From positions 1,716-65,715 of the forward strand of contig DATKKJ010000054.1 of NCBI GenBank assembly GCA_035543055.1: 64,000 nucleotides of DNA. Direction: 5' to 3'. The notes under the pieces were generated by a model. The model searched no databases and had not been told where the DNA came from. It was given only the letters and a program-made list of their open reading frames with translations. Source of the DNA: Terriglobales bacterium. GTDB taxonomy: Bacteria > Acidobacteriota > Terriglobia > Terriglobales > Acidobacteriaceae. Shown here in pieces: positions 9,893 through 34,864 of this stretch. Numbering within the stretch: the first letter of the stretch is position 1; each line of letters begins with the position of its first letter. Position numbers and translations under genes: made by a program.

Positions 9893-12220
9893 TCAGTAGA
9901 TAAGGCGGAGGATGTCGGAGTAGTCGTCGGTCCAGAGGCGAGGGGCCACGCCTCGGTATTGCACAGTGATTGGCTGCAAGCCGGGTATGTTGAGCAACTC
10001 CGGATGGCGGGTGATCAGAAACCAGGCGCTGCCGTAGACGGGTGCCTGGGGCTGGTTCCAGGTGAGCAGGTACTGGGCATGGAAGTGAGCGGCGGCACCT
10101 TGCAGCACCGGCACCAGATCCACATGTCGGCTGGTGATGTGAACGGCGATGATGCCAGTCTGGGGGTCCAACTGCTGCCAGTAGGTCTCGAAAGCCTCTT
10201 TGGTAAGAAGGTGAACCGGTACGGAGTCCCCATTGAAGGCGTCGAGGACCAGGACGTCGAAGCGCCCGCGCGCGCCGGCGGCCGCCTCGCGTTCCAGAGA
10301 GAGCCGGGCATCTCCCAAGGCCAGGGAAACGGTCGCAGGGGAATCGCGGAGGTAGGTAAACAGCGGGTGCTCACCGGAGCAGAGGCTGACCACATCGGGA
10401 TTGATCTCGTAGAAGCGGATGGAATCTCCGTGGTGGCCGTAGGCAGCAAGTGTCCCCACTCCCAGGCCGACCACGCCCATACGCAGGGTTCCGCCGGCGA
10501 CATTCCGGCTGGGATGGTTCCGCAGCAGCACGCCAATCCCGCTAATGGGGCCGTAATAAGCCGTGGGGTAGCGCTCCATGGGCGGGTCGAGTTGAGTGCC
10601 GTGGCTGGTCTGCCCGTGCACCAGTTCGTTCAAATGGGTATAGCGGAAGACGCGCACGACGCCGTAGAAGCTGCGCGCTCCCCAACGGAACGCCCCTTTG
10701 GGGAGAGAGCTGAAATACAGCGCGGCGAAGGCGAATAGGATGAGGGCGCCAACCGGGATCTGCACGGAACGGAAGCCGCGTTCGGCGGCATCAGTGCCCC
10801 GCTCCAGCATCACGGCTGCCATCACAGCCGTGATGCCGATGAACACGGCAACGGGATAGAAGCGGAGGGAGTCCAGGAGGTCGGCGATGGCGGGAAGCCA
10901 GCGGCCGGCGCCGAAGCCGGCCAGCAACGTAGCCACGACGATCACGAGTGGCAGCCAGAGGCGGCGACGGAAGAGCCAGGAGTCTGGATCGAGAAGCAGC
11001 GTGACCAGCCACAAGATAATGGCCAGCCCCAGCGACAGTTGAAATTCGAGGAAAGACCTGAATACATGGGGCGCGACGACGGCCACGAAAATGCCGCCCG
11101 CCGCGCCACCGGCGGAGATCACCAGGTAGAACGAGGTCAGGGAGCGCACGCCGGGCTTGAGCCGGACGAGCTCGCCGTGGCAGATCATGCAGGTGAAAAA
11201 CAGCAACAGGGGAAGGACCATCGTCAGGACGAGGAACTGGACAAAGGCCAGAGCGGCGAAGGTCAGAAACAGGGCGGCCGCAAACAAGGGGTGGAAGACG
11301 GCGCGCTGATACCAGCGCGGATGATCGAAGCAGAGAATGAAACTGAGCAAGTAGAGCGAGAGTGGCAGCACCCAGAGCAGGGGGACGGTGATGACCTCCT
11401 GGCAGAGCAGGTTGGTGGTGGCCAGCAGCAGGGAGGAAGCGCAAGCGGCCAGCAGGAACCATAAGCCGTAGAGGAGGGGGCGGGGGCGCGCCTCGGGGCA
11501 GTCGGCAGGCGAATCGGTCGGCTCCGCGAGCTGGCGATCGGGTGCAGGCATCGCCCGCCAGGCGCACAGGGCACAGCCGCCGGCGAACAGGCAGAAGGCG
11601 ATGGACCAAATCCTTCCCTGGAGCTTCAGATGGAGCGTGGGCTCGACCAGGAGGGGAAAGCTCAGGAGTCCGAGGAGCGAACCGAGATTGGAGAGGGAAT
11701 ACAGACGATAGGCCCGGGCTCCTCTGCCGAGGCGTGCAAACCAGCCCTGCAACAGCGGAGCCGTGGTGGACAGAACGAAGAAAGGGAGGCCGACGGAGAG
11801 CAGAACGATGGCCGCGACAGCGGCTGCCGGACTGTCGGTGGAGAGGGGTTTCCAGGAGGGGCCGGGGGTGATCGCCGAGGGCCAGAAGAAGGACAGGATG
11901 AGAACCAACAGAAAGGCGAGGGCTAGGACCAGCGAATGAAGCCGGGCCTGGGCGATGGGGGAGAGCCGCACGGAAACCACGTGGGAATAGACATATCCGG
12001 CCAGTAGCAGCAACTGAAAGACCAGCAGACTGGTAGTCCAAACGGCGGCAGAGCCGCCGAACCAAGGCAGGATGTGTTTGCTGATGATCAACTGCACCTG
12101 GAAGAGGAGGAAGGCGCTCAGGAAAGAGGTGAAGGCGAACAGGAGGGTGGTGGTCCGGGGAACGGTCTCGGCCGAGACTTGGGGTGCGGGCTGCACGGCG
12201 GCGGCGGTGTCGGAAGTCAA
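9893..12220 (-). CDS. fused polytopic membrane domain / spermidine synthase-like methyltransferase-fold protein
   Basis: 775-aa ORF with a TTG start. The N-terminal ~480 aa are strongly hydrophobic. The C-terminus has an aminopropyltransferase-like fold (GVVGLGVGTLAAY..FDVLVLDAF). Confidence 0.8.
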   Translation of the reverse strand: MTSDTAAAVQPAPQVSAETVPRTTTLLFAFTSFLSAFLLFQVQLIISKHILPWFGGSAAVWTTSLLVFQLLLLAGYVYSHVVSVRLSPIAQARLHSLVLALAFLLVLILSFFWPSAITPGPSWKPLSTDSPAAAVAAIVLLSVGLPFFVLSTTAPLLQGWFARLGRGARAYRLYSLSNLGSLLGLLSFPLLVEPTLHLKLQGRIWSIAFCLFAGGCALCAWRAMPAPDRQLAEPTDSPADCPEARPRPLLYGLWFLLAACASSLLLATTNLLCQEVITVPLLWVLPLSLYLLSFILCFDHPRWYQRAVFHPLFAAALFLTFAALAFVQFLVLTMVLPLLLFFTCMICHGELVRLKPGVRSLTSFYLVISAGGAAGGIFVAVVAPHVFRSFLEFQLSLGLAIILWLVTLLLDPDSWLFRRRLWLPLVIVVATLLAGFGAGRWLPAIADLLDSLRFYPVAVFIGITAVMAAVMLERGTDAAERGFRSVQIPVGALILFAFAALYFSSLPKGAFRWGARSFYGVVRVFRYTHLNELVHGQTSHGTQLDPPMERYPTAYYGPISGIGVLLRNHPSRNVAGGTLRMGVVGLGVGTLAAYGHHGDSIRFYEINPDVVSLCSGEHPLFTYLRDSPATVSLALGDARLSLEREAAAGARGRFDVLVLDAFNGDSVPVHLLTKEAFETYWQQLDPQTGIIAVHITSRHVDLVPVLQGAAAHFHAQYLLTWNQPQAPVYGSAWFLITRHPELLNIPGLQPITVQYRGVAPRLWTDDYSDILRLIY

Positions 12221-14694: not shown

Positions 14695-14874
14695 GTGGGC
14701 AAGATTCTACACCCGTGACCTGATTGGTGGATGCCCTTGATGGGGGACGAATAAACCACCCCCAGGGGATGAATAGGGCATTGTCGGCGTTGGGCGAGCC
14801 GGGGAGACTCACCGCGCGTGCGTTCCCGCCAAACCGTCCGGCGGTCCGAATGCAGAGATGAGGGGAGAAAACCC

Positions 14875-16719
14875 ATGATTCGAATGCAAGGCCGGCATGC
14901 TTGCTTGGTTACCGGCCTAATGTTGGCGCTCTTGACTGTAGCTTGCGGCGGTAGCGGTGGTTTTACCGCGCTGGGGCCGCCCAACGGTCCTCCGCAGCCG
15001 ACGGCAACGCCACAGTCCGTCCAAATCGAGCCGAGCCAGGCGACTCTGGTTCCCTTACAGGTGGTGCAGTTCAAAGCCTCAGTAGTCCCCAACGGAGCCG
15101 ACCAGGCCGTCCAGTGGTTCCTCCCAGCCGGCTGCGATCCCGACCACTGCGGAACGGTGGACAACACCGGGAAATACACGGCCCCCAAATTCCTGCCCGG
15201 CTCGCCCACACTGATGCTGCGCGCCATCGCTGTGGCACTGCCGCAACCAGAGACGGAGGCGAGCATCAGAATCATCGCCCCTCCGGAGGAAGACAACTCC
15301 CGGAATTACAGTCTGCAGGGCCAGTATGCGGTCCTGGTTGGGACTGCATTCAATTCTGTGATCGACGAGCGGCAAGCACTCGCCGCCACGCTCTACGCCT
15401 ACGGGGACGGCACGGTTTCCGGGGTCTGCGACGATCCGGGGCACTCGCAGCTGGGAGGCGCGCTGGTCGGGCACTACGCCATCGCCGCCGATTACCGGGC
15501 GCGCCTCACGCTGCAATGCGGCGGAGGTCCGACCCGCACCCTGCGGGTCGCCTTCATCCCGCCAGTGGAGGGCGAACCTGCAAGCAAGGGACACATCATC
15601 CAGCTGGGCTATCCCTCAGAGGACCTGTCGGCGGGAATGATCGCGCGGCAGGACCCCTCGGCATTCTCGAAGGAGGCCCTGGCCGGGGACTACGCGTTCA
15701 GTCTGGGCCCGATGATTGGCCGGTTCACCCTCGGATACAGCGAGGATTTCGCTGAGACCCTTTTCCTCGGCCAGCTCGATCTGCGCTTCGGCTCCTACGA
15801 GCAGCGGAACCTTTCCTTCCTCGGCTTCTATGAGGTGGACGCCGACGGCCGTGGCCGGCTCAGCGTGGGTGGCCTGCCGCAACAGACGATGTTCAGTCCG
15901 TTCCAGCCGGTCGACCTCCGCGACCTCCTGGTTGAATTTCGGTTCTATGTGATTTCCAGCGACGAACTCGTGCTGCTGCCCACGTTCTCCAAGACCGGCT
16001 GTTGTCCGGTGGGGCCGGCGGTGTCGGTCGGACTGGCGCACCGGCAGTCCGGACTTCCACTCTCCAACGAATCGTTGACGGGCAACGCGGTCCTCCTGGA
16101 TTCGCGGGCTGACAGCGAGCAGCACGTCTACCTCGTCGGAAAGGTCGCACTCGACGGTGCGGGCGCCTTCAACGGTTCCGGAGACCGGTTCAGCGTCTGG
16201 TTCGAGTTCGAGGAAAGTAGCCTGCACGAGACAAATGTCCCCATCGCCGGTGTGTACTCGCTCGCGCCGGACGGGCTCGGCGGGGGAAGCATCACCATCA
16301 ACGGGACGGAGAACCCGCTGTACGTGGTGCGGCCCGGGCGGGCGCTTCTGGGGTTCAATAGCACGCCGACTCACTTGGAGGTCGGCGCCGCCGGTCCGTT
16401 CGACGATGGTGCGTTGACGGGCGACTATGCCGTCGGCACACCAATGCCACCGTTCTGGGGCAGAACGGCCGGGAGCTTCAAATCCGGAGGCAATGGCACC
16501 GGCCAAGCTGTCCTCGACAGCTTTGTCGTCGGGGTCTCAGGGTCCGTCGTCGAGGACAAAGCTACGGTCACATACACGACGGCGAGCGACGGCCGCACGG
16601 TATTCGTATTCACGGATGCCGACGGGAACCACTGGTCGGCTGTGTTCTATCTACTCTCGCCAAGCAAGGCAGTAGGGATCTGGACCCACGCGGCGGGGAG
16701 CGGAGTGCTGGAACGATAA
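14875..16719 (+). CDS. hypothetical lipoprotein with N-terminal Ig-like (Big_2-like) domain
   Basis: ORF 14818-16719. Start placed at MIRMQ after a GAGGGGAG RBS. Lipobox LLTVAC. Confidence 0.6.
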   Translation: MIRMQGRHACLVTGLMLALLTVACGGSGGFTALGPPNGPPQPTATPQSVQIEPSQATLVPLQVVQFKASVVPNGADQAVQWFLPAGCDPDHCGTVDNTGKYTAPKFLPGSPTLMLRAIAVALPQPETEASIRIIAPPEEDNSRNYSLQGQYAVLVGTAFNSVIDERQALAATLYAYGDGTVSGVCDDPGHSQLGGALVGHYAIAADYRARLTLQCGGGPTRTLRVAFIPPVEGEPASKGHIIQLGYPSEDLSAGMIARQDPSAFSKEALAGDYAFSLGPMIGRFTLGYSEDFAETLFLGQLDLRFGSYEQRNLSFLGFYEVDADGRGRLSVGGLPQQTMFSPFQPVDLRDLLVEFRFYVISSDELVLLPTFSKTGCCPVGPAVSVGLAHRQSGLPLSNESLTGNAVLLDSRADSEQHVYLVGKVALDGAGAFNGSGDRFSVWFEFEESSLHETNVPIAGVYSLAPDGLGGGSITINGTENPLYVVRPGRALLGFNSTPTHLEVGAAGPFDDGALTGDYAVGTPMPPFWGRTAGSFKSGGNGTGQAVLDSFVVGVSGSVVEDKATVTYTTASDGRTVFVFTDADGNHWSAVFYLLSPSKAVGIWTHAAGSGVLER

Positions 16720-19974: not shown

Positions 19975-20226
19975 ATGGCCTACGTGATCACAGATGGTTG
20001 TATCAAGGACTCGCTGTGCGTGAATGCGTGTCCGGTCGATTGCATCCACCCCAAGGAAGACGAGGAGAAGTTCGCAGCCGCGACCCAGTTGTACGTGGAC
20101 CCGGTCACCTGCATCGATTGCGGCGCCTGCGTGGGCGTATGCACGTCCGACTCGATCTTCGCCCTGGACGACGTGCCGGAAGACAAAAAGCAGTTCATCG
20201 AGCTGAACGCAAAGTACTACAACTAA
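19975..20226 (+). CDS. ferredoxin (Fe-S cluster, 7Fe/8Fe type)
   Basis: 83-aa ORF with Cys motifs CxxxxxxCxxxCP and CIDCGACVGVC. Confidence 0.85.
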   Translation: MAYVITDGCIKDSLCVNACPVDCIHPKEDEEKFAAATQLYVDPVTCIDCGACVGVCTSDSIFALDDVPEDKKQFIELNAKYYN

Positions 20227-20261
20227 GCGGGCACAAGATCCGCAGCATCAGGAGGAAAGAA

Positions 20262-20289
20262 GGGGACGCAGAGGCGTCCCCCTTTTTCT
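20262..20289 (+). terminator. Rho-independent terminator
   Basis: Stem GGGGACGC / GCGTCCCC with loop AGAG, followed by CTTTTTCTG. Confidence 0.8.
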
Positions 20290-20295
20290 GTCCGT

Positions 20296-20428
20296 CGCAG
20301 ACATCGCCCCACTGCCGTGGGGCTCGCACTACGCTGCGAGCCGCAGGTCCTCACCCCCTCGCTCCGCTCAGGGCTCGGCACTTTCGCGCCTCGGCAAAGC
20401 ATCCCTACGGGACGGCGCTCAGGATGAC
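20296..20428. repeat. composite of intergenic hairpin repeats ending in CGCTCAGGATGAC
   Basis: Contains CTCGCA..TGCGAG and TCCCTACGGGA hairpins plus the GTCATCCTGAGCG-family terminus (20416-20428). Confidence 0.5.
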
Positions 20429-20440
20429 AAAAAGCAAGGG

Positions 20441-21151
20441 TTAGGCCAGGTCGAACAACAGGATCTCGGCGGGCGGGGAATCGGCGCCGGTGAGCTCGAC
20501 GGACTGTTCGTCGCTGATGGCGGCGCCGTCGCCCTGGCGGAGCGTCTTGCCGTTCACCGTGACCGTGCCGCGGGCCACCTGGACCCAGGCGTGGCGGCCG
20601 GGGGCGAGCTGGTGGCTGACGGTCTTGCCGCTGTCCAGCACGCTGCCGTAGATGCTGGCATCCTGGTGGATGGTGACGGAGCCGTCGCGGCCGTCGCGCG
20701 AAGCGACCAGGCGCAGGCGGTTGCGTTTGTCGTCGTCGGAAAAGGTCTTCTGCTCGTAGCCGGGCTCCAGGTTCTTCTTCTCCGGGAAGATCCAGATCTG
20801 CAGCAGGTGCACCCGTTCGTCCTTGGAGTGGTTGTACTCGCTGTGCAGGACGCCGGTGCCGGCGGTCATGCGCTGCACGTCGCCGGGGCGGATGGTGGAG
20901 CCGTTGCCCATGCTGTCCTTGTGGGCCAGCCCGCCCTCCAGCACGTAGGTGACGATCTCCATGTCGCGGTGGGGGTGGGTGCCGAAGCCGCCCCCGGGCT
21001 GCACGAAATCTTCGTTGATGACGCGCAGGGAACGGAACTGGTGATGTGCCGGGTCGAAATAATCGGCGAAGGAGAACGTATGCCAGGTATTGAGCCAGCC
21101 GTGGTCGAAGTGGCCGCGCTCGGCGGCGGGGCGGATGGTAAGCATGTTCAT
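20441..21151 (-). CDS. pirin family protein (bicupin)
   Basis: ORF 20441-21301 trimmed to [20 protein letters not shown]. Pirin metal motif [15 protein letters not shown]. Confidence 0.9.
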
Positions 21152-21681
21152 AACCTCGGCCGATATAGATGCCGGACGAAGCAAGAACGAAGCGAGCGGG
21201 CACAACCGGGGGTCCTTCAGGGACTTACCGACGATGCCGCGAGGACCTATCTGGCTGTCGAATCTGCCGCCGGTTTGACCGGCTCCGGGCGGGGCTCCCA
21301 ATCATGGTCATGCAGACCATCGAGAAGCTCGTCCGGAGAGATGCGCTTGCGGCAGCGGTAGCAGATGATCACCGCGACGGATTTGTCTCCCCACCATCCC
21401 ATGCGCGCATCATCGACCAGATCGGAGCACAGGACAAGATAACGGGCGTAATGCTCCCTAGTAACCATAAAGGGGACGGGGTGGAAAACCGAGCGGCGGG
21501 TCTGAGGATGGTCGCCTGAATCAACCAGCAAGCCAGAGGCGTTGCGTTGAACGTTTGCGTGGCTTTACGCTTGCGACCCTTGCAAATCCGCCGGGCGACT
21601 TTCCACCCCGAACTTACGACCGCAGCATAACGCGTTGGCGGGGGAGTACAAGATGACGCCGGTCACCTAGGCGGTTACCGA

Positions 21682-21713
21682 TTTCCACGCGGTTGTGGAA
21701 ACTAGTGTGGAAA
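21682..21713. promoter_or_regulatory. TTTCCAC-N6-GTGGAAA inverted repeat plus extra GTGGAAA half-site
   Basis: Read directly. A fourth TTTCCAC lies at 21600-21606. Sits in a 0.7-kb poorly coding gap. Confidence 0.35.
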
Positions 21714-21810
21714 AGCCGGAGATAAATTTCTAAAGGCCGCGCAAGTTGAGGCGTTTCTACAGGTTGCACAGTTTTGAGTGCGGATTGCGGCGGCCTAAAT
21801 GCGTCGGCGA

Positions 21811-21850
21811 CAAAACCCCCACCCAGGCCAAAACCGGGGCTGGGTGGGGT
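21811..21850 (-). terminator. Rho-independent terminator (minus strand)
   Basis: Stem CCCCACCCAG / CTGGGTGGGG, followed on the minus strand by GTTTTGTCG. Lies 15 nt after the stop at 21865. Confidence 0.65.
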
Positions 21851-21864
21851 ACAACCCACGGCAT

Positions 21865-23136
21865 TCAATGGCGCGCGCGCAGGGCCGAGGCAATGCGGTC
21901 CACCGCGAGCAAGTGGGCGGCGGCGCGCAGGCCGATGTGTTCCCGGGCGCCGCAGTCGTGCACCGCCAGGTAAGCTCTCTGGATGCAGTCCTTCATATGC
22001 GCCTCGACATCACCGTTGGTGCGGCAGAGGCCACGCTGGTTGCGCGACCACTCCAGGACCGAGGCCAGCAGGCGCGTGGAGTTGGCGAGGATGTCGGGCA
22101 CGACCAGCACGCCGCGGTCGGCGAGGATGCGGTCGGCGGCGGGGGTGATGGTCTCCTGCACGGCCTCGACGACCACGCCGGCGTGGACCCTGGCGGCGTT
22201 CGCGGCCGTGATCTGGTGTTCGTCGGCGGCGGCCACCAGGAGGTCGCATGAGGTTTCGAGGACCTGCTCGTTGGTCGCGGCTTCGGCACGAGGGAATCCG
22301 AGCATGACGTGGTTGGTCTCGACGTAGGACTGGAGCTCGGCGATGTCGAGGCCATGCGGGTTGTGGAGGCCGCCGGAGAGATCGGCGATGGCGACGACAC
22401 GGGCGCCGGCGTCGTACAGCAGGCGGGCGGCGGCGCCGCCGAGCTTGCCGAATCCCTGGACGGCGACGGTGGCGCCGCGCACCAGGCCTCCGCGCTCCAG
22501 CAACACTTGCTCCAGCAGGAGAAAGAGATTGCGGGCGACCAGGGCGTCGAAGGCAGGCAGGCCCCAGAGTCCCTCGGGCTTGCCGGTGACGGCGGCGGCC
22601 TCCATGTGGCCCGCGGCGCGGATGAAGCCGTCGAACATCCAGGCGGCGGTCTGGGCGTTGCTGCCGATGCCGGGAGCGAGCACGTCGGTGGCTGGGCCGG
22701 CGATGCCGCGCAGGGCATAGACGTACTCCTTGGTGACGTCGCGGAGCTCGCGCTCGCTGAGTCTCTGGGGATCGCAGACGATGGCGCCGGCGCTGCCGCC
22801 GAAGGGCAGATCGAACAGGGCGCACTCCCAGGTCGTGGTCATGGCAGCGGCGCGGACGTGGCTAAGGCGCACGTCGGGGGAGTAGCGCACGCCTCCGAGT
22901 CCCGGTCCCTGCCAGGTGCAGTGCTGGACGCGGTAGGCGGTGACCATGAGCGGAAGTCCGTCGTTGGTGATGAGCGGCAGGTTGAGCGAGAGCTCGCGCT
23001 CGGGATGGCGGAGGCGCTGGACGATCCAGGCCTCCAGATCGAGGTGGCGGGCCGCAGTCTCGAAGTGCAGAGTGGCCTGCACGAGAGGGTCGAAGTCTTC
23101 GGTCTCGGCAGTGGGGAGCAGGGTGTCGGAGATCAT
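21865..23136 (-). CDS. Glu/Leu/Phe/Val dehydrogenase-fold protein, catalytic residues substituted
   Basis: ORF trimmed to MISDTL with a GGGGAGG RBS. Collinear with GDH. Rossmann motif VAVQGFGKLGG is retained. GPxKGG reads GPGLGG, TWKxA reads TWECA, GGxKGG reads GGSAGA, and APDV reads APGI. Confidence 0.85.
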   Translation of the reverse strand: MISDTLLPTAETEDFDPLVQATLHFETAARHLDLEAWIVQRLRHPERELSLNLPLITNDGLPLMVTAYRVQHCTWQGPGLGGVRYSPDVRLSHVRAAAMTTTWECALFDLPFGGSAGAIVCDPQRLSERELRDVTKEYVYALRGIAGPATDVLAPGIGSNAQTAAWMFDGFIRAAGHMEAAAVTGKPEGLWGLPAFDALVARNLFLLLEQVLLERGGLVRGATVAVQGFGKLGGAAARLLYDAGARVVAIADLSGGLHNPHGLDIAELQSYVETNHVMLGFPRAEAATNEQVLETSCDLLVAAADEHQITAANAARVHAGVVVEAVQETITPAADRILADRGVLVVPDILANSTRLLASVLEWSRNQRGLCRTNGDVEAHMKDCIQRAYLAVHDCGAREHIGLRAAAHLLAVDRIASALRARH

Positions 23137-23183
23137 GGGAACCTCCCCGGGGGTTCGCAGGGGCGGACCCCCGAATCCGTCGA

Positions 23184-24386
23184 TCAATCCGCACTGCCGG
23201 GCTGAGGCATGTAGCGCTCAACCACCGGCAGGCGGAAGTGAGGCAGCTCGCGCGGCGGCTCGCTGCGCGGGAAGATGCGCAGGTGGAGCACCGCCAGGCG
23301 GAAGGCCAGCACGGCGGCCGTCACCAGCATGATGGTGACCGCCATCTCCGGCCACTTGGGCACGTACCCGGCGTGCGTGGCCCGCTCCAGCGAGGTGATG
23401 GAGACGTTGATACGGTGCACAATGAAGCCGGCGACGGTAGCGGCGGCGGCCCAGTACAGCCCGATGGGCTGCTGGAAGACGGGCCGCAGGTTGAACATCA
23501 CCAGCGGCACCACCACGAACAGCGCCACCTCCAGCCAGAAGTAAGCGGTCTCCTCGACCGGCTTGAAGAGGTAGCCGAGGGCCTGCTGCCGGGCCAGGTC
23601 GCCGAAGCGGAAGAGCGCGAACAGCACCAGCAAAGGAATGATCATGCGGCGCAGGTCATCCAGCAGCTTCAGGTCGAGACGGACGTTCAGCGAGCGCACC
23701 GAGAGGTACAGGGCCATGATGATGAGGGCCATGCCGGCGGGAATGGCCGACAAGTAGAAGAGTGTCGTCTGGTAATTGCTGTACCAGAGCGGGTACATCT
23801 TGCCCTTGAAGATGATGAACAGCCCGCCCAGGAAGGACTGGTGCAGGGAGGAGAGCAGCACGCCGATCAGCACCAGGCCGATCAGGATGCGGTGCTGCCA
23901 GGCCAGGAAGAGCTCACGGGCGCGCTTCCAGGGGATCTTCTCGGCCAGCGCCGGGGAGAATTCCAGGGCCAGCACCGTGGTGTAAAGCATGATGCACCAG
24001 ACCACTTCAAAGAGGACGGAGGAGCGGTTCCACATGACGATGGGGTGCCAGAAGTTCCAGGGCAGCCCCAACTCCCAGGCGTAGCCGGCGCAGACCGAGA
24101 GATAGCCCAGGAAGGCGATCAAGACGGCGCAGCGGGCGAGTGGGCGGTAGCGCTCCATGCCCAGCAGGTAAACGCCGCCGGCGATGGCGAAGCCGCCGGC
24201 GGAGAGGCCGACGCCGCCCAGGGTGGCCAGCCCGACCCAGATGCCCCAGGGCTGAGCGTTCGACATGTTGGTGGCCACCGCGAATCCCTTCACGAAGCGG
24301 AGGTAGGTGGCCCAGAGGCCGGAGGCGAAGATCAGCGCCACCAGCACGCGCCACATCGTGATCTTGTTGGTGATGGTCTGCAACAT
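23184..24386 (-). CDS. NrfD/PsrC/HybB-type polytopic quinone-interacting membrane subunit
   Basis: 400-aa ORF with ~10 TM helices and an AAGGAG RBS. The sequence pattern resembles HybB/NrfD anchors. Confidence 0.8.
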   Translation of the reverse strand: MLQTITNKITMWRVLVALIFASGLWATYLRFVKGFAVATNMSNAQPWGIWVGLATLGGVGLSAGGFAIAGGVYLLGMERYRPLARCAVLIAFLGYLSVCAGYAWELGLPWNFWHPIVMWNRSSVLFEVVWCIMLYTTVLALEFSPALAEKIPWKRARELFLAWQHRILIGLVLIGVLLSSLHQSFLGGLFIIFKGKMYPLWYSNYQTTLFYLSAIPAGMALIIMALYLSVRSLNVRLDLKLLDDLRRMIIPLLVLFALFRFGDLARQQALGYLFKPVEETAYFWLEVALFVVVPLVMFNLRPVFQQPIGLYWAAAATVAGFIVHRINVSITSLERATHAGYVPKWPEMAVTIMLVTAAVLAFRLAVLHLRIFPRSEPPRELPHFRLPVVERYMPQPGSAD

Positions 24387-24389
24387 GGC

Positions 24390-25154
24390 TCAGCTCCTTT
24401 TCTGCGAGTCGTCGACGCGGCTTTCAGCCAGCGCGACCTCGCGCTTGCGCTGCGTGAACCAATAGAGGCCGGAGAGCAGGGAACCGCCGACCAGGACGAC
24501 GGTCGGCACTTCGCCCAGCGCGGCGGCGCTCAGCGTGGGCAGGGGCTGGTTCATGGGCGCGGTCACGAAGCCCAGGTCCTCGAAGGGGACGTCGGAGAGA
24601 TAGAAGACGGAAGTGCCGCCCACCTCGATCTCGCCGTAGATCTTGCGGACGTAGGCCGGGTTCTCCGCGATGCGCTTGTGGGCCTCGGCCAGCAGGGCCT
24701 CGCGGTCGCCGAACATGGTGGCGCCGGTGGGGCAGACCTCGGCGCAGGCCGTGGGCTTGCCGGCAAGGGTGCGCTCGGCGCACAGGTCGCACTTGGTGAC
24801 GTAGGGCGCCAGCTTGCTCCATTCGTACTTGGGGACGTCGAAGGGGCAGGCGATCATGCAGTAGCGGCAGCCGATGCACTTGCTGCCGTCGTAGCGCACG
24901 GCGCCTTCGCTGGTCTTGATGAGAGCGCCGACCGGGCAGGCCGAGGCGCAGGCCGGGCTCTGGCAGTGCATGCACTGGCGGCGGACGAACTTGCCGCCGC
25001 GCTCGCTCACCACGGTCAGCGCGGTCTCGGAGAGCGCGGTCTCGTGTTCCTTGGGAAATCCGTGGAGCTCCTTGCAGGCTTGCTCGCAGGCCTGGCAGCC
25101 GACGCACTTGGTGATGTCGATCAGTAACGCGTTCGATCTGGTTTCCATGGTCAT
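24390..25154 (-). CDS. 4x[4Fe-4S] ferredoxin-type subunit (HybA/NrfC/DmsB-like) with C-terminal TM helix, no Tat signal
   Basis: Four Cys clusters: CVGCQACEQAC, CMHCQSPACASACP, CIGCRYCMIACP, CDLC..CAEVCP. No twin-arginine in the N-terminus. The start may be the second ATG at 25148. Confidence 0.9.
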   Translation of the reverse strand: MTMETRSNALLIDITKCVGCQACEQACKELHGFPKEHETALSETALTVVSERGGKFVRRQCMHCQSPACASACPVGALIKTSEGAVRYDGSKCIGCRYCMIACPFDVPKYEWSKLAPYVTKCDLCAERTLAGKPTACAEVCPTGATMFGDREALLAEAHKRIAENPAYVRKIYGEIEVGGTSVFYLSDVPFEDLGFVTAPMNQPLPTLSAAALGEVPTVVLVGGSLLSGLYWFTQRKREVALAESRVDDSQKRS

Positions 25155-25181
25155 AACCTCCTCATGCGTTCACTGCCACAG

Positions 25182-25841
25182 CTAGGTCAAAAGGAATTCA
25201 CGGACGACGCGGCGCTGGAGGACCGGCTCCAGGCGCTTGAGCAGACCGGCGACCGGCTGCCCGCCATCCTGCATGACCGCAGCCGACTGAGCAGTCATAG
25301 CAGCCAGGCGGCTGAGCGTGCCCTGCATCCAGGGCGCGACCATCGGCCCCTGCACCAGGTTCTTGAGATTGGTGTTGATCTCGGGCGACTTGATGACGCA
25401 GATCCAGCCTTCCTTGTAGGGATCGGCGACCGCCAGTTCGGGATTGGCGAGCACACCCTGGTTGACCGAGACCAGCACGCCTTCGATGGGAGAGAGCATG
25501 TCCACGGTCTGGCCGTCGAAGCAGACGCTCCACAGCCTCTGCCCTTGACGCACCCAGCGGTTCAGGGCGGCGACTTCAATGCGCTCCGGCTTGCCGATCA
25601 GGGTGGCGGCGAAGGAGTCCAGCCCGATGCGAGCGTTCTGATTGCCTTCGTCGAGCGCCCAGGTATGTCCGGGATGGAAGAAGTAGCCGCGGGGAAGATC
25701 GAAACCCATCTCGCGGGTCATCACCGGTTGCAGAGGCGGGGCCAGGGTCCGGGCGACCGCCGTGCCGACATCCCTGCCCTTGACGAAATAGGTGATCACC
25801 ATGATGAGCAGGAAGGTGAGCAGTACAAAGAGGATCGACAT
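25182..25841 (-). CDS. membrane-anchored GcvH-like (glycine cleavage H fold) protein lacking lipoyl-lysine
   Basis: 219 aa with an AGGAGG RBS and an N-terminal TM helix. Shows a GcvH-like pattern (YFFHPGHTWA, ARIGLDSFAA, SPIEGVLVSVN, DPYKEGWICVIK). The position aligned to the lipoyl-Lys is Gly110. Confidence 0.7.
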   Translation of the reverse strand: MSILFVLLTFLLIMVITYFVKGRDVGTAVARTLAPPLQPVMTREMGFDLPRGYFFHPGHTWALDEGNQNARIGLDSFAATLIGKPERIEVAALNRWVRQGQRLWSVCFDGQTVDMLSPIEGVLVSVNQGVLANPELAVADPYKEGWICVIKSPEINTNLKNLVQGPMVAPWMQGTLSRLAAMTAQSAAVMQDGGQPVAGLLKRLEPVLQRRVVREFLLT

Positions 25842-26035
25842 ACGCGCCTCCTGACTTCCACTGTGGACAGAGCACGTTGGGGCGCAGTCGGAATGTGGTG
25901 AAGGGAAAGGGGTTGGGGGAGGTCAGGAGAGTGGGCGCTGGATTTCGCCTAGCGAAATGCGTGGAAGCGATGCGTTTTGCAGGGGCGTAGAAGCAGCCCG
26001 CCACGAATTCTCGTCGGATTGGTTATTGTGCTCCT

Positions 26036-26854
26036 CTAACGACAGAATTTTTGCAGCTCTGGAGGCGGTGGCAGTGGAATTGCGTCGAATTCGCCGGGCC
26101 ACCCTGTGCAGCCATGAGCGACCACGGCGCGGGCGAAGTCCTTCTCGAGTTTGCGGGCCTTCGTCTTGCCTTCTTCTGTGCGGACGCTGCCAAGATCCGC
26201 TTCAAGTGATTGGAGATCATCCGATCTAACGTCTGGATATCCTGCGTCAGAACTGACGAGGAACCACACATAGCCGTTGAACTTGTCGCGATCTACCCCC
26301 CGCCCCTCTTTCAACAGCGTGCCGAGCCGGTACTGAGCCTGCGGAAGGCCCTGCTCGGCGGCCTTTTGAAACGACTCCGCAGCCAGAGTGTATTCCTGCC
26401 TTTCCAGCCGGATCATACCCAGCAAATATTCGCCGAAGGGATCGCCCTGCGTGGCGGACTTCTGTAGCCATGCGGCGGCCTCAGTCACGTCGCGCGGCGG
26501 AATCAGGCCGGCGAGAATCAGTCGGCCGACGAGCCATTGCGCGAGGGGATCGTTCTGTTGTGCCGCCTTCTTATACCAAGTCAGTGCGTGCGACGCGTCC
26601 TTGGTGACGAGTAGGCCCGTCTCGTAGAGATAGCCGAGCACCACTTGTGCTGGCACGTATCCCATCTCTGCAGATCTGCGGAACAAGCTGACGGAGTTGA
26701 GGTCACTGCGGCTTTGGCTGCTTCCGATAAGGCCGTTCATCGCGCGCTCATATAATTGCGACGCACTATCAGCCTGGGAAGCCGTTTGCGCAAGAACCTG
26801 GCTGAACCCGACAGCCGATAGCGAGAGAATCAGCACAACCAAACACCACCGCAC
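26036..26854 (-). CDS. Sel1-repeat (TPR-like) secreted protein
   Basis: ORF 26036-26971. GTG start at 26854 preceded by an AAGGAG RBS gives a signal peptide. Repeated Sel1 motifs (AEMGYVPAQVVLGYLYETG, AAQQNDPLAQWLVG, ATQGDPFGEYLLG, AEQGLPQAQYRLG). Confidence 0.8.
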   Translation of the reverse strand: MRWCLVVLILSLSAVGFSQVLAQTASQADSASQLYERAMNGLIGSSQSRSDLNSVSLFRRSAEMGYVPAQVVLGYLYETGLLVTKDASHALTWYKKAAQQNDPLAQWLVGRLILAGLIPPRDVTEAAAWLQKSATQGDPFGEYLLGMIRLERQEYTLAAESFQKAAEQGLPQAQYRLGTLLKEGRGVDRDKFNGYVWFLVSSDAGYPDVRSDDLQSLEADLGSVRTEEGKTKARKLEKDFARAVVAHGCTGWPGEFDAIPLPPPPELQKFCR

Positions 26855-27054
26855 GGTCCGCTCCTTCGAAACAAGCTTATCAGGAGAGGAACAACGAAAC
26901 GGCAAGCAATCGCCCGCCGGCGCGGGTTTTTCTCTTGTGCGGTGCTCCCACTGCTTTGCAGTGGCCTTCAAATCCTCCCAGGCGGCTCGACCTTTCCTTG
27001 ACCATCCGGGAGCGGCAGAGCATAATTTCGCCGCTTTCCACAGGAGTCCTGGCC

Positions 27055-28770
27055 ATGAGTGAGTCCCCGATCAAGCGCATAGGCGATTACGAGATCCTTG
27101 GCGAGTTGGGCGCGGGCGGCATGGGCCGCGTGTACCGGGTGCGCAACGTCCTGACCGACCGGGTCGAAGCCATGAAGGTGCTGCTGCCCAACCTGCAGGG
27201 CCATGAAGAGGTGGCGGCGCGTTTCCTGCGCGAGATCAAGGTGCTGGCGGCGCTCAACCACCCCAACATCGCCGCCCTGCGCACGGCCCTGACCATCGAG
27301 AACCAGTTGGTCATGGTGATGGAATACGTGGAGGGCGAATCGCTGTCGTCGCGGCTCAATGCCGGGGCCATCCCGATCGCGGATGCGCTGAATTATCTCG
27401 ACCAGGTGCTGGACGCGCTCAGCTACGCGCACAAGAACCACGTCATCCACCGCGACATCAAGCCGGCGAACATGATGCTGACCCGCCAGGGAGTCGTGAA
27501 GTTGATGGACTTCGGCATCGCCCACACCGAGGCGGCCGAGGACGCCAAGAAGCTCACCGCAACCGGCTCGACCCTAGGATCCATCAGTTACATGTCGCCG
27601 GAGCAGGTGAAGGGCGAAAAGACCGACGAGCGTTCCGACCTCTACTCGCTGGGGATCTCGCTCTACGAGATGGTGACGGGGAAGAAGCCGTTCGATGAGG
27701 GCAGCAGCTTCTCTATCATGGCGGCGCACATCAACCAGGCGCCGACGCCGCCCATCGAGTTGCATCCCGACATCCCGCCGCTGGTCAACCAGCTGATCCT
27801 GAAGTCGATCGCCAAGCCGCCAGGCGAGCGCTACCAGACGGCGGACGCGTTCCGCGCGGCCGTGCGCCAGGCGCGCGCTCTGGTGCCGGCGGACGACCGG
27901 ACGATCGTGCGGGGCTCCAGCGACTACACCTTCGCCAATGCGCCCACGGTCGGCACCGTAGCGGCCAACGACCGGACGGTCGTGCAGGGCTCGACCGACA
28001 ACACCATCGCGGCGTCGATGGCGCCAACGGCGCCGAACCCGGCGATCCCCAGCGTGCCGGCGCCGGCTGCAAGCGCAGCTCCAACTGCTCCGGCGGCGCC
28101 CACCTACCGTCAGGCCTTCGCGACAGTCCCGGCACCTCCTCCGCGGCAGGCAGCCGCGCCGCAGTATGCAGCAGCGCCCGCTTCCCATCCGCCCGTCGCA
28201 GCCTCCGGCAGCCACCGTGGGCTTTACATCGCGCTCGGGGGGTTGCTGGTGGTCGTGGCCCTGGTCGCCGCCGGACTCTATATGCCGGGGCACAAGAAGG
28301 CTTCCGCATCCGACGCCGTGCAGCCGACCAAGGCGATCCAGGAAGCGCCGGCACCGACCCCGCCGCCAGCCGCGGCTCCAGCAGCCGCGCCCACACCAGC
28401 GGGTTCGACTGCGGACGCTGACGCTCTCGCCCGCGCCAAGGCGCAACGGCTGGCGCAAGAGAAGGCGGCCGCGGAAGCTGCTCGCGCTGCCGCCGAGCGG
28501 AAGGCGCAACTCGACGTGGTGGAGCACCAGATCGACCAACTGACCGGGCGCGCAGGTGCGGTGAACGCCAGCCTCAACACCCTGCAGCGCCAGCAGAACG
28601 CGTCCGGATATGGGCTGCGCGGCGACATGGCCTCGGCACAGAGCCGGCTGAACGTCAATCTGGCCAAAGCCCAGAACGCCATCCAACACGAGGACCTGGA
28701 GCGCGCCAAGCGCTATGCGGCGGAAGCCGAATCCGACCTCGAGACGCTGGAGAAGTTCCTGGGCAGATAA
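27055..28770 (+). CDS. Ser/Thr protein kinase with TM helix and extracytoplasmic coiled-coil region
   Basis: ORF trimmed to MSESPIKRIGDYEI. Hanks motifs GELGAGGMGRVY, HRDIKPANM, DFG, SPEQ. A/P-rich linker, one TM helix, coiled-coil tail. Confidence 0.9.
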   Translation: MSESPIKRIGDYEILGELGAGGMGRVYRVRNVLTDRVEAMKVLLPNLQGHEEVAARFLREIKVLAALNHPNIAALRTALTIENQLVMVMEYVEGESLSSRLNAGAIPIADALNYLDQVLDALSYAHKNHVIHRDIKPANMMLTRQGVVKLMDFGIAHTEAAEDAKKLTATGSTLGSISYMSPEQVKGEKTDERSDLYSLGISLYEMVTGKKPFDEGSSFSIMAAHINQAPTPPIELHPDIPPLVNQLILKSIAKPPGERYQTADAFRAAVRQARALVPADDRTIVRGSSDYTFANAPTVGTVAANDRTVVQGSTDNTIAASMAPTAPNPAIPSVPAPAASAAPTAPAAPTYRQAFATVPAPPPRQAAAPQYAAAPASHPPVAASGSHRGLYIALGGLLVVVALVAAGLYMPGHKKASASDAVQPTKAIQEAPAPTPPPAAAPAAAPTPAGSTADADALARAKAQRLAQEKAAAEAARAAAERKAQLDVVEHQIDQLTGRAGAVNASLNTLQRQQNASGYGLRGDMASAQSRLNVNLAKAQNAIQHEDLERAKRYAAEAESDLETLEKFLGR

Positions 28771-32459: not shown

Positions 32460-33848
32460 TCAGTTATCCGAGTGCGAACGCTTGAGGCGGCGGAGCAGGG
32501 AAGTGGGGTGGATGCCCAGGATGCGGGCGGCCTGGGTCTTGTTATTGCCGCTGGCGGTCAGCACTTCCTGGATGTAGCGGTCTTCCAGTTCGTCGAGGCT
32601 CAGGAACTGGTGGCCGGTGGGAGAAACGTCGAAGCCGGACGACATCGGGGGCTCCGCGGCCTTAGGCCGCACGTAGTCGCGGATCTCCTCGGGCAGGGAG
32701 GCGGCGTCGATGTCGCCTTCCGGGGCCAGGATCATGGTGCGCTCGATGACGTTGCGCAATTCACGGACGTTTCCCGGCCAGGGATAGGAAGTCAGGAGCT
32801 CGGCGGCGGCGGGCGTCAGGCCGGTAAAGTTCTTCTTTAAGTCCCGGTTGTAACGCTGCATCAGGTCTAAGGCTAACGGCACGATGTCTTCCTTGCGCTC
32901 GCGCAGAGCGTGAATTCGCAGGGGGACGACCGCCAGGCGGTAATACAGGTCCTCGCGGAACTTGCCGGCGGCGATCAGCTCCTTCAGGTCCTTGTTGGTG
33001 GCGGCGATGATGCGCACGTCCACGCTGATCACCCGGGTGCCACCGAGACGCATGAAGGTGCCTTCCTCGAGGACGCGCAGCAACTTGGCCTGGACGTTGA
33101 GCGACATGTCGCCGATCTCATCAAGGAAGAGGGTGCCGTGGTTGGCGCGCTCGATGAGGCCTTCCTTGCGGCGGCGGGCGTCGGTGAAGGCGCCCTGCTC
33201 GTAGCCGAAAAGCTCGCTCTCCAGGAGGGTCTCGGGCAGGGCGGCGCAATTCAGCTCGATGAGGGGCATGTGGGCACGGGGGCTGTGGTAGTGGATGGCC
33301 TTGGCCAGCACTTCCTTGCCGGTGCCGCTTTCGCCGGTGACGAGGATGGTGGTGCGGTCGCTCTCGGCGGCTTTGCGGCAGACCTCGAGCATCTCGCGCA
33401 CGTCGGGATTGAGGGTGACGACGCGGCCGAAATCGTAGCGTCCCTTGGCGTTCTGCACCGACTCGCTGACCCGGACGCGCAGGGCGAGCATCTCGGTGGC
33501 GCGGCGGACGGTGTTCACCATGTCGGCGAGGTGGAAGGGTTTGACCAGGAAGTCGTAAGCGCCGAGCTTCATGGCTTCGACCGCGCGGTCCACCTGGTGG
33601 TAGGCGCTCATCATGATGGCGATGGTCTGCGGAGACTGCTGCTTGATCTCGCGCAGGACCTCGACGCCATCCATGCCGGGCAGCACCACGTCGAGCAGCA
33701 CCAGGCTGGGATGGTCCTGGGCGAACCTCTCCAGGGCCTGTTCGCCACTAGTGGCGACCTCCACCTCGAAACCTTCCTCGCGGAGGGCGCGGCTGATGGT
33801 GCGCAGGGTGAGCGCCTCGTCGTCCACGACCAGGATGGAGTAGGCCAT
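32460..33848 (-). CDS. sigma54-dependent response regulator (NtrC family)
   Basis: 462 aa. REC domain, AAA+ domain (GESGTGKE, GAFTDA) and C-terminal HTH. Confidence 0.93.
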   Translation of the reverse strand: MAYSILVVDDEALTLRTISRALREEGFEVEVATSGEQALERFAQDHPSLVLLDVVLPGMDGVEVLREIKQQSPQTIAIMMSAYHQVDRAVEAMKLGAYDFLVKPFHLADMVNTVRRATEMLALRVRVSESVQNAKGRYDFGRVVTLNPDVREMLEVCRKAAESDRTTILVTGESGTGKEVLAKAIHYHSPRAHMPLIELNCAALPETLLESELFGYEQGAFTDARRRKEGLIERANHGTLFLDEIGDMSLNVQAKLLRVLEEGTFMRLGGTRVISVDVRIIAATNKDLKELIAAGKFREDLYYRLAVVPLRIHALRERKEDIVPLALDLMQRYNRDLKKNFTGLTPAAAELLTSYPWPGNVRELRNVIERTMILAPEGDIDAASLPEEIRDYVRPKAAEPPMSSGFDVSPTGHQFLSLDELEDRYIQEVLTASGNNKTQAARILGIHPTSLLRRLKRSHSDN

Positions 33849-34864
33849 CAGGTCACCACCTCTTCAAATTCCGGGGCCGGGCGGCCGACCTGGCGGATGG
33901 GCAGAGTGATGCGCACGGTCGTGCCCTGGCCGGGGTTGCTCTCGATGCGCAGATCGCCCTTGTGACTGCGCATATAGGACTGGCTGATACTCAGGCCGAG
34001 CCCCGTGCCCTTGCCGCGCTTGGTGGTGAAAAAGGGCTCGGTGACGCGGGGCAGGATGTCCGCGGGGATGCCGCAGCCGGTGTCGGAGACGGCGATCTCG
34101 ATCTGTTCCTCGAACTTCACCTTGCGGGCGGTGACCGCGATGCGCCCGCCCTCGTCGGTGGCCTGGCCGGCGTTGAGCAGCAGGTTCATCAGCACCTGGG
34201 AGAGCTGGTTGGCGTCGGCCGAGATCTGGGGCAGGTCGGGGGGGACATCTTTCACCAGCTCGATACCGTGGAACAGCGGCTGGTGGCGGAGGAAATCCAA
34301 GGTGTCTGTGACCAGGCGATCGAGATGGATCTTGCTGATCAGCAGGGGCCCGGGGCGGGCATAGTTCAGTAGGCCATGGATGGTGGCCGAGATGCGTTTT
34401 GCGCCCTCGATGCACTGCTCGAGCTCGGCGCGCTGCTCCGCGTCGCGGGCGGCGCGCAGCTCCAGCTCCAGGTGGGAGAAGATGCCGAGCAGGGGATTAT
34501 TGATCTCGTGGGCGGCGCCCATGGCGAGCTGGGCCAGGGCGGCATACTTCTCGTATTCAGCCAGCTGGGCCTGGAACTGGTGTTTTTCGCGGGCCAGTTC
34601 TCGTTGCTGGCTGAGGCGGTTGGCCAGCTCCTCCTGGGCCAGGTCGCGTTCCTGCTCGCGCTGCCGGGCCGTCTCCAGGGCACGGGCCAGGTCGGCGCAG
34701 GTTCGCTGGTAGCGCCGGCGAGTGGTCCACCACACGACCACCGCGAGAACGAGGGCGCCACCGGTGACGGCGATGATGAATTCGTGGGTCAGAAAAAACG
34801 ACGGGAGGTCAAGGACGGCGCAGCCGACCGGAATCGACGCACATCCGGGCGCGCACGGGGACAC
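33848..34864 (-). CDS. sensor histidine kinase
   Basis: 338 aa. TM helix, H-box AHEINNPL, HATPase motifs (DTGCGI, GTGLGLSIS). One-nt overlap with the regulator gene. Confidence 0.88.
   Translation of the reverse strand: MSPCAPGCASIPVGCAVLDLPSFFLTHEFIIAVTGGALVLAVVVWWTTRRRYQRTCADLARALETARQREQERDLAQEELANRLSQQRELAREKHQFQAQLAEYEKYAALAQLAMGAAHEINNPLLGIFSHLELELRAARDAEQRAELEQCIEGAKRISATIHGLLNYARPGPLLISKIHLDRLVTDTLDFLRHQPLFHGIELVKDVPPDLPQISADANQLSQVLMNLLLNAGQATDEGGRIAVTARKVKFEEQIEIAVSDTGCGIPADILPRVTEPFFTTKRGKGTGLGLSISQSYMRSHKGDLRIESNPGQGTTVRITLPIRQVGRPAPEFEEVVT

Follow-up and report, generated by a model that had tools for sequence, protein, structure and literature searches.

In Thermus thermophilus, the catalytically inactive glutamate dehydrogenase (GDH) paralog GdhA is the regulatory subunit of a GdhA-GdhB hetero-hexamer (PMC9570180), and ADLP, a pseudoenzyme of the same species that resembles alanine dehydrogenase (AlaDH), has lost its catalytic lysine, binds NAD(H), and regulates an unrelated enzyme (bioRxiv 10.1101/2025.10.31.685773). 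Among membrane redox proteins, HybA and HmcB are tail-anchored and depend on the twin-arginine translocation (Tat) pathway, and the published modules of a ferredoxin and a HybB-like protein carry c-type cytochromes (bioRxiv 10.1101/2023.11.02.564894); in HybB itself, replacement of R89, Y99, E148, or H184 impairs hydrogenase 2 (Hyd-2) (PMC8076601). Here, we describe a computational analysis of a locus in which homologs of GDH and of HybA/HybB stand side by side, namely, a cassette of four closely spaced genes on the minus strand of a 64,000-nucleotide stretch from a Terriglobales bacterium (assembly GCA_035543055.1, contig DATKKJ010000054.1, positions 1,716 to 65,715; the whole stretch is called the window below). 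The genes encode, in this order, a protein resembling the glycine cleavage H protein (GcvH), a ferredoxin, an NrfD-family membrane protein, and, as the last of the four, a 423-amino-acid protein of GDH fold (21865..23136, minus strand) that lacks the equivalents of K89, K113, K125, and D165 (L80, E104, A116, and G156 in their places) and that we call pseudo-GDH. We showed that the clade to which this protein belongs has lost its catalytic residues, keeps an intact predicted fold, and is under relaxed purifying selection. The cassette is undescribed and carries a pseudo-enzyme paralog of GDH.

Catalytic residues, fold, and selection in the pseudo-GDH clade

Pseudo-GDH is a member of the ELFV dehydrogenase superfamily, as seen from its two-domain GDH fold and from both Pfam domains of the superfamily, the N-terminal dimerization domain ELFV_dehydrog_N (PF02812; E value of 2e-36, 124.9 bits against a cut-off of 25.3) and the NAD(P)-binding domain ELFV_dehydrog (PF00208; 2e-44, 152.4 bits against 23.4). 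Its best scores against the GDH equivalog families of NCBIfam reach only about half of the required values (303 bits against a cut-off of 620 for GdhB_Halo and 297 against 750 for GdhA_Arch). The original prediction, made by eye, held that all four key active-site residues are substituted while the dinucleotide fold is intact, and a phmmer alignment to Thermotoga maritima GDH (1b3b; E = 3e-84), almost gapless and of high posterior probability throughout, leaves that reading in place, with neither the lysines nor the aspartate recovered. In this alignment, GPAKGG pairs with GPGLGG, TWKTA with TWECA, and GGGKGG with GGSAGA, so that the lysines of the family motifs GP.KGGiR, MTWK.A, and GG.KGG are replaced by L80 (codon CTC, 22897-22899), E104 (GAG, 22825-22827), and A116 (GCC, 22789-22791), respectively, the first two lysines being those that bind the carboxylate and the third the catalytic one; likewise, APDVNT pairs with APGIGS, which puts G156 (GGC, 22669-22671) at the catalytic Asp of APDV. 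The divergence noticed earlier in two further motifs is equally clear, with AVQETIT found opposite GANGPTT and ANSTRL opposite ANAGGV; in addition, GSKGREEATGRG of the T. maritima enzyme pairs with GLPAFDALVARN, and the GS.GR.EATGRG loop is replaced. The segment VAVQGFGKLGG (residues 223-233) is preserved, as originally read, and with it the dinucleotide motif GFGKLG (GxGxxG, 228-233); the acidic residue at the end of strand beta-2, D252, is kept as well, together with the D252-x-S-G sequence that it opens. Misalignment of the catalytic residues was considered and ruled out by the phmmer alignment and by two MAFFT alignments, one with 120 and the other with 150 sequences.

The reading frame itself is unremarkable. 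It runs from an ATG to a TGA with a GC content of 0.88 at third codon positions, and this 423-amino-acid version is favored over a start at the TTG at 23187 because a Shine-Dalgarno-like GGGGAGG (23142..23148, minus strand) precedes the ATG at 23136 by 5 nt; homologs start at the equivalent methionine. The protein has neither a signal peptide nor a transmembrane (TM) segment. A pseudogene or a sequencing artefact is ruled out by the intact open reading frame (ORF), by the 100% identical protein on public record from a Terriglobales (Acidobacteriota) metagenome-assembled genome (MAG), and by the fact that the substitutions are common to the clade.

This sharing of the substitutions is extensive. 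No catalytic Lys is present in 68 of the 120 best homologs, and these 68 have the common signature GP.LGG.R, TWQCA, and GG[AS]AGA, whereas in the canonical relatives (n = 52) the three lysine positions are 100% K/K/K, so that the substitutions go far beyond what chance would give. When we restricted the count to the 39 unique GDH-like proteins whose genes adjoin the same neighbors as in the window (here called cassette linked), not one had a lysine at any of the three sites; the catalytic Asp is retained in 14 of the 39, and D-x-S-G is invariant in all of them. A search with a profile against 1.84 billion cluster representatives gave top-ranking representatives that were all of the pseudo-GDH type, and the clade comprises about 25 or more clusters at 50% identity.

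To ask what kind of constraint acts on these proteins is to ask where their variation lies, and we compared positional entropies in redundancy-reduced subsets (<70% identity) of 25 Lys-less and 28 canonical sequences. At 19 positions of the substrate and nicotinamide pocket, mean entropy is 1.57 bits in the Lys-less clade compared to 0.03 bits in canonical GDHs, and the former value is close to the average over the whole protein (1.55 bits). The clade has lost the nicotinamide-site Asn and Pro of GANGPTT, and its alignment shows no new conserved polar or catalytic residues in the cleft; what is conserved there is a set of hydrophobic replacements (L80 in 88%, A116 in 91%, A118 in 97%, and L193 in 90% of sequences). 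Other parts of the protein are held more firmly: the Rossmann glycines and the following Asp are well conserved (0.29 bits), and the N-terminal helices (residues 13-45) are more conserved in the clade than in canonical GDHs (1.32 compared to 2.00 bits). Together with the clade-wide loss of lysines, the contrast in pocket entropy strongly supports the earlier view that the protein is not an amino acid dehydrogenase.

Selection nevertheless keeps the protein. At identities as low as about 32%, the ORF is still intact over its full length, as it is in 35 out of 39 unique lineages; the remaining four sequences (245 to 376 amino acids) lie on short contigs. For the GDH-like gene, the median dN/dS of 21 pairs within one sub-clade is 0.20, and seven further pairs with usable dS give values between 0.10 and 0.34. 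The AlphaFold2 model of pseudo-GDH is of high confidence (pLDDT of 93.2, pTM of 0.90), and Foldseek matches it to solved GDHs with TM-scores of 0.91 to 0.92. Since the protein is maintained by selection while its catalytic pocket is not, we regard it as a pseudo-enzyme, and since the loss of the lysines is common to every cassette-linked relative, as a pseudo-enzyme rather than an isolated product of decay.

Loss of lysine was also seen outside this clade. Of the 150 best cluster representatives, 48 lack the catalytic Lys, including lineages without the cassette signature; in these other cases, the residue in place of K125 is Q, M, S, H, or C, and K113 is often still present (representatives P0285, P0286, P0291-P0294, P0305, P0313, P0316, P0339, P0354, and others). 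Lysine loss thus recurs in the GDH family, and the Lys-less lineages that lack the cassette may be independent pseudo-GDHs.

The cassette, its distribution, and its regulators

We collected loci in two ways, via the GDH-like protein and via the H-like protein (the genome scan used an alignment of 7 sequences), and found the same four-gene order in every locus that carries a protein of the pseudo-GDH type, between flanking genes that are unrelated. The cassette is specific to Terriglobia; all of these loci come from MAGs of Terriglobia or Acidobacteriota or from soil and peat metagenome contigs, and hundreds of copies were detected in metagenomes. GDH genes outside the cassette are canonical (loci L015 and L016, and second copies in L020 and L024). 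In the latter two loci, a canonical GDH gene with all catalytic residues lies 0.5 to 2 kb downstream of pseudo-GDH (L020, 6001-7230; L024, 11565-12962).

The first gene (25182..25841, minus strand) encodes a membrane-anchored look-alike of the H protein, 219 amino acids long. It matches Pfam GCV_H (5e-14) and the T. thermophilus H protein 1ONL (3e-13) but stays below the GcvH cut-off (55 against 117 bits); public annotations call the protein GcvH or a lipoate-binding protein. In its model, an N-terminal TM helix is followed by a disordered linker, the H-protein fold (strands 53-151), and C-terminal helices. The lipoyl-lysine of the V-E-S-V-K hairpin aligns to the G of CFDGQT in the window protein, and each of the 17 homologs aligned has G or D at this position. 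The H-like protein was therefore ruled out as a carrier for lipoate swinging-arm chemistry, the hairpin tip and its vicinity being devoid of Lys. The TM helix is unusually conserved and contains invariant residues, and the protein ends in a C-terminal extension of about 60 amino acids that closes with EFFLT. From the charges that flank the TM helix, the H-like domain is predicted to be cytoplasmic.

The second gene (24390..25154, minus strand) encodes a ferredoxin of 254 amino acids that is most similar to HmcB, HybA, and FdnH. Its 16 cysteines form four [4Fe-4S] motifs and are invariant in 17 out of 17 sequences, and the protein has a conserved C-terminal end of HybA type, in which a TM helix precedes a basic tail. 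The first Cys lies 16 residues from the start, an RR motif and a hydrophobic N-terminal region are absent in every homolog, and neither a Tat signal nor a Tat-bearing partner for the ferredoxin was found in more than 50 copies of the cassette. This Tat-less ferredoxin is either carried along by a protein whose gene lies elsewhere or oriented toward the cytoplasm, where it could touch pseudo-GDH.

The third gene (23184..24386, minus strand) encodes a membrane subunit of the NrfD family (400 amino acids; Pfam NrfD, PF03916, 54 bits against a cut-off of 25.8) that resembles HybB and HmcC, its best NCBIfam matches. Ten TM helices are predicted, with both termini inside and a charge bias that fits the inner N terminus, and the protein is collinear with E. 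coli HybB over these ten helices, the HybB residues R89, Y99, E148, and H184 being conserved. The NCBIfam scores of genes 2 and 3 fall below all equivalog cut-offs, including those of HybB and HmcC. Given the 16 invariant cysteines, the four HybB residues, and the invariant TM residues of the H-like protein, the partner proteins appear to be functional.

Pseudo-GDH evolves differently from these partners. Between the window and locus L001, it is 49% identical, compared to 81% for the NrfD protein and 84% for the ferredoxin, and across pairs its dN is 2 to 9 times higher than that of the partners and its omega 2 to 5 times higher in most pairs. Furthermore, profile and tblastn searches found no GDH-like gene in 13 of the 52 unique cassettes that have enough downstream sequence. 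In a neighbor-joining tree of NrfD, which carries no support values, these GDH-less cassettes are scattered among carriers, and this scatter implies at least four losses. Pairwise DNA comparisons show clean deletions of 1.2 to 1.4 kb between conserved flanks, for example, between the carrier L079 and the GDH-less L063 and L100. (GDH-less cassettes also include L075, L072, L105, L092, L057, L065, L071, and others; L067 was the other close carrier compared.) Because pseudo-GDH diverges fast and is repeatedly deleted, we consider the three-gene core to be the stable unit, with pseudo-GDH ancestral to the cassette yet dispensable. Identities within the cassette are sometimes discordant, L001 and L010 sharing 98% in the ferredoxin and 87% in the GDH-like protein, and L001 and L006 sharing 81% and 92%, respectively; this pattern suggests recombination within the cassette among related genomes (L001, L006, L007, and L010-L013).

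A two-component pair accompanies the cassette. In the window, it consists of a sigma-54-dependent response regulator (32460..33848, minus strand), 66 to 80% identical to regulators that adjoin the cassette in other loci, and a HisKA/HATPase_c histidine kinase (33848..34864, minus strand) that is likewise conserved near the cassette. Orthologs of the pair with this range of identity lie just upstream of the cassette in many loci (L002, L005, L018, L023-L025, L028, L057, L063, L072, L075, and others), and the pair stays with the cassette in 11 of the 14 GDH-less loci that have enough upstream sequence. More distant homologs, 51 to 54% identical, are found directly upstream of canonical GDH genes in MAGs of WOR-3 (L015) and Eubacteriales (L016). 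In addition, 34 of 53 unique loci have an element of the form TTGC[CA]-N5-6-CGTGCAC at 53 to 172 nt before the start codon of the first cassette gene, and in some loci a GG precedes the TTGC at the -24/-12 spacing of sigma-54 promoters (CGGGAAG-N4-TTGC, with an overlapping GG-N10-GC). The window copy, CTGCGCCCCAACGTGCTC (25870..25887, minus strand), is degenerate, has no GG, and falls outside the matches of the search pattern. The element possibly has promoter or operator function. We found no good match to the sigma-54 consensus TGGCAC-N5-TTGC upstream of the window cassette, and scans for sigma-70 promoters and terminators, as well as for Rfam families at E <= 1 over positions 20000 to 27500, returned nothing relevant.

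As for the surroundings, a gene for a pirin/quercetinase-like cupin (20441-21301, minus strand) follows pseudo-GDH on the same strand at a distance of about 560 nt and is not conserved beside the cassette elsewhere. Two window ORFs with coding-like base composition at third codon positions have no Pfam match, one of 633 amino acids (14818-16719, plus strand; threshold of E <= 1e-3) and one of 775 amino acids (9893-12220, minus strand; E <= 1e-5).

Possible roles of pseudo-GDH

We hold with moderate confidence that pseudo-GDH is a non-catalytic cytoplasmic accessory protein of the membrane module, acting as a scaffold or as a sensor of a ligand. Amino acid deamination is not expected of it, because the carboxylate-binding and catalytic lysines, the Asp, and most residues of the pocket and the nicotinamide site are gone. 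Instead, pseudo-GDH would be co-transcribed, as a fourth and accessory member, with a three-protein membrane module made up of a HybB-type NrfD subunit for quinone and proton chemistry, a HybA-type electron transfer protein with four [4Fe-4S] clusters, and a TM-anchored H-protein domain without lipoyl group. It would sit in the cytoplasm, tethered to the module or recruited by it, with the cytoplasmic H-like domain as one candidate tether and the newly constrained N-terminal helices of pseudo-GDH as one candidate interface, and it would modulate the module rather than catalyze a reaction. The intact GxGxxG and D-x-S-G make an adenine dinucleotide the probable ligand in the window lineage. Four elements of this proposal are inferred: contact with the module, residence in the cytoplasm, binding of a nucleotide, and a part in regulation.

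Several observations weigh against this proposal. A quarter of the cassettes do without the gene, and when partner proteins of carriers and of GDH-less cassettes are compared, their differences track phylogeny, with a weak signal only in the C-terminal tail of NrfD, and we found no relaxed region. The GxGxx[G/A] motif is retained in 29 of the 39 cassette-linked homologs and lost in 10, so that dinucleotide binding cannot be the universal function of the family; even for the window protein, where the motif is intact, NAD(P) binding is suggested at the level of the motif only. The Fe-S domain of the ferredoxin should be periplasmic, judging from homology to HybA/HybB and the charge of the C-terminal tail, and would then lie in another compartment than pseudo-GDH. 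Finally, protein-protein contact is proposed from gene linkage, which could reflect co-regulation only.

The original prediction left the choice between a neofunctionalized and a non-catalytic protein, and of the two it is the non-catalytic one that fits better, as no new conserved polar residues line the cleft. A neofunctionalized oxidoreductase would act on a new, non-amino-acid substrate and pass reducing equivalents between NAD(P)(H) and the Fe-S/quinone module as the catalytic "A subunit" of an ABC-type NrfD complex. Its gene does occupy the operon position that is usual for catalytic subunits of NrfC/NrfD-type systems (PMC8076601). The window protein has an intact GxGxxG and acidic residue, the conserved replacements L80, A116, A118, and L193 make for a more hydrophobic cleft, and the ferredoxin, having no Tat signal, might be cytoplasmic. 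Conversion of hydride to single electrons in such enzymes needs a flavin or other cofactor, however, and none is present here. A pocket as variable as the rest of the protein, without new catalytic residues and without the Asn and Pro of the nicotinamide site, also speaks against an enzyme, as do the loss of GxGxx[G/A] in 10 of the 39 homologs and the deletion of the gene from 13 of 52 cassettes in which the Fe-S/NrfD pair persists. We therefore regard such an enzyme as unlikely.

Two further explanations were weighed. Retention of domain I and of the overall fold, together with the precedent of the inactive T. thermophilus GdhA, which regulates GdhB, would be consistent with a regulatory subunit that forms hetero-hexamers with a canonical GDH encoded elsewhere, in which case a common sigma-54 control (of nitrogen or carbon) would alone account for its linkage to the cassette. 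The canonical GDH genes that closely follow the cassette in L020 and L024, and the kinase and sigma-54 regulator genes of 51 to 54% identity directly upstream of canonical GDHs in the WOR-3 and Eubacteriales MAGs, point in the same direction. Yet L020 and L024 are the only two of the inspected loci with a canonical GDH nearby, a tblastn search found no second GDH within the 64-kb window, pseudo-GDH always adjoins the membrane genes, and the regulator pair remains with the cassette in 11 of 14 loci after the GDH-like gene has gone, all of which makes this explanation quite improbable. The other possibility is slow erosion of an ancestral GDH gene, of which the present gene would be a relic without function. 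Divergence far faster than that of its neighbors, progressive loss of the dinucleotide motif, and the independent deletions, at least four in number, are what such a relic would show; a strong Shine-Dalgarno sequence before the start codon, full-length ORFs in 35 of 39 unique lineages, dN/dS well below 1 in every pair with usable dS, and clade-specific constraint gained at the N terminus and at D-x-S-G are not, and we give very little credence to this possibility.

A more far-reaching reading can be put forward only tentatively, and we find it rather doubtful as a whole. Terriglobia may have a new quinone-coupled membrane complex under a dedicated sigma-54 two-component regulator, in which a HybA/HybB-type module is combined with a cytoplasmic lipoyl-less H protein and a hexamer of Lys-less GDH, the two serving as metabolite or redox sensors that gate or cluster the module; or else a Tat-less ferredoxin facing the cytoplasm may use the GDH shell as a novel subunit for docking of a substrate or of NAD(P), again under such a regulator.

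Significance and comparison with known systems

The combination of an NrfD protein with GcvH-like and GDH-like proteins appears to be new. A review of NrfD complexes includes no complex with GcvH-like or GDH-like subunits (PMC8076601), the partner combination of the cassette is not among the modules of a survey of tail-anchored Tat ferredoxins (bioRxiv 10.1101/2023.11.02.564894), and full-text literature searches found no published description of it. The finding has consequences for annotation, in that the current labels "glutamate dehydrogenase" and "glycine cleavage H protein" are misleading when nitrogen and one-carbon metabolism is reconstructed from Acidobacteriota MAGs. In Terriglobia, one of the dominant groups of soil and peat, the cassette is abundant. 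To our knowledge, a single system with a catalytically dead GDH paralog is known, that of Thermus GdhA; in the present case, a diverse clade as a whole has been recruited to a different context, that of a membrane iron-sulfur/NrfD module. The family also offers a natural series for the study of how pseudo-enzymes are recruited, relaxed, and discarded, from a full fold with the dinucleotide motif, through loss of the motif, to deletion of the gene. Lastly, a HybA homolog without Tat signal raises the question of the topology of NrfD-type complexes.

How the cassette proteins relate to described systems can be seen most directly for the membrane module. Within NCBIfam, the two middle genes match Hyd-2 HybA/HybB of E. 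coli and HmcB/HmcC of Desulfovibrio best, and they share with these the pairing of a tail-anchored ferredoxin with an NrfD-like quinone subunit. In contrast to these systems, the cassette ferredoxin has no Tat signal, there is no hydrogenase or cytochrome c partner, and the partners are instead two dead homologs of enzymes. The first of these, the H-like protein, has the H-protein fold of GcvH and of the lipoate-binding LbpA proteins but differs from both in having G or D for the lipoyl-lysine, an N-terminal TM helix, and the C-terminal extension of about 60 amino acids.

The second, pseudo-GDH, has the two Pfam domains of the canonical hexameric GDHs and superimposes on them with TM-scores of 0.91 to 0.92 (T. 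maritima, 1B26/1B3B; Arabidopsis GDH2, 8OWM). It is 38% identical to the T. maritima enzyme and keeps the Rossmann GxGxxG and the following Asp, whereas the three lysines, the catalytic Asp, the GS.GR..ATG.G loop, GANGPTT, and ANAGGV are all replaced. With Thermus GdhA (PDB 3AOE, whose chains match pseudo-GDH at TM-scores of 0.88 to 0.92), it shares the condition of a GDH-fold paralog in a non-catalytic role; however, GdhA is the partner of a catalytic GDH, and pseudo-GDH is linked to membrane redox genes in a window that has no catalytic GDH. ADLP is more distant in structure, having the AlaDH and not the ELFV fold, its partner is a soluble CoA transferase, and NAD binding was measured there and is predicted from motifs here. 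Even so, as an amino acid dehydrogenase homolog without catalytic Lys, it is the functional model that we favor for pseudo-GDH.

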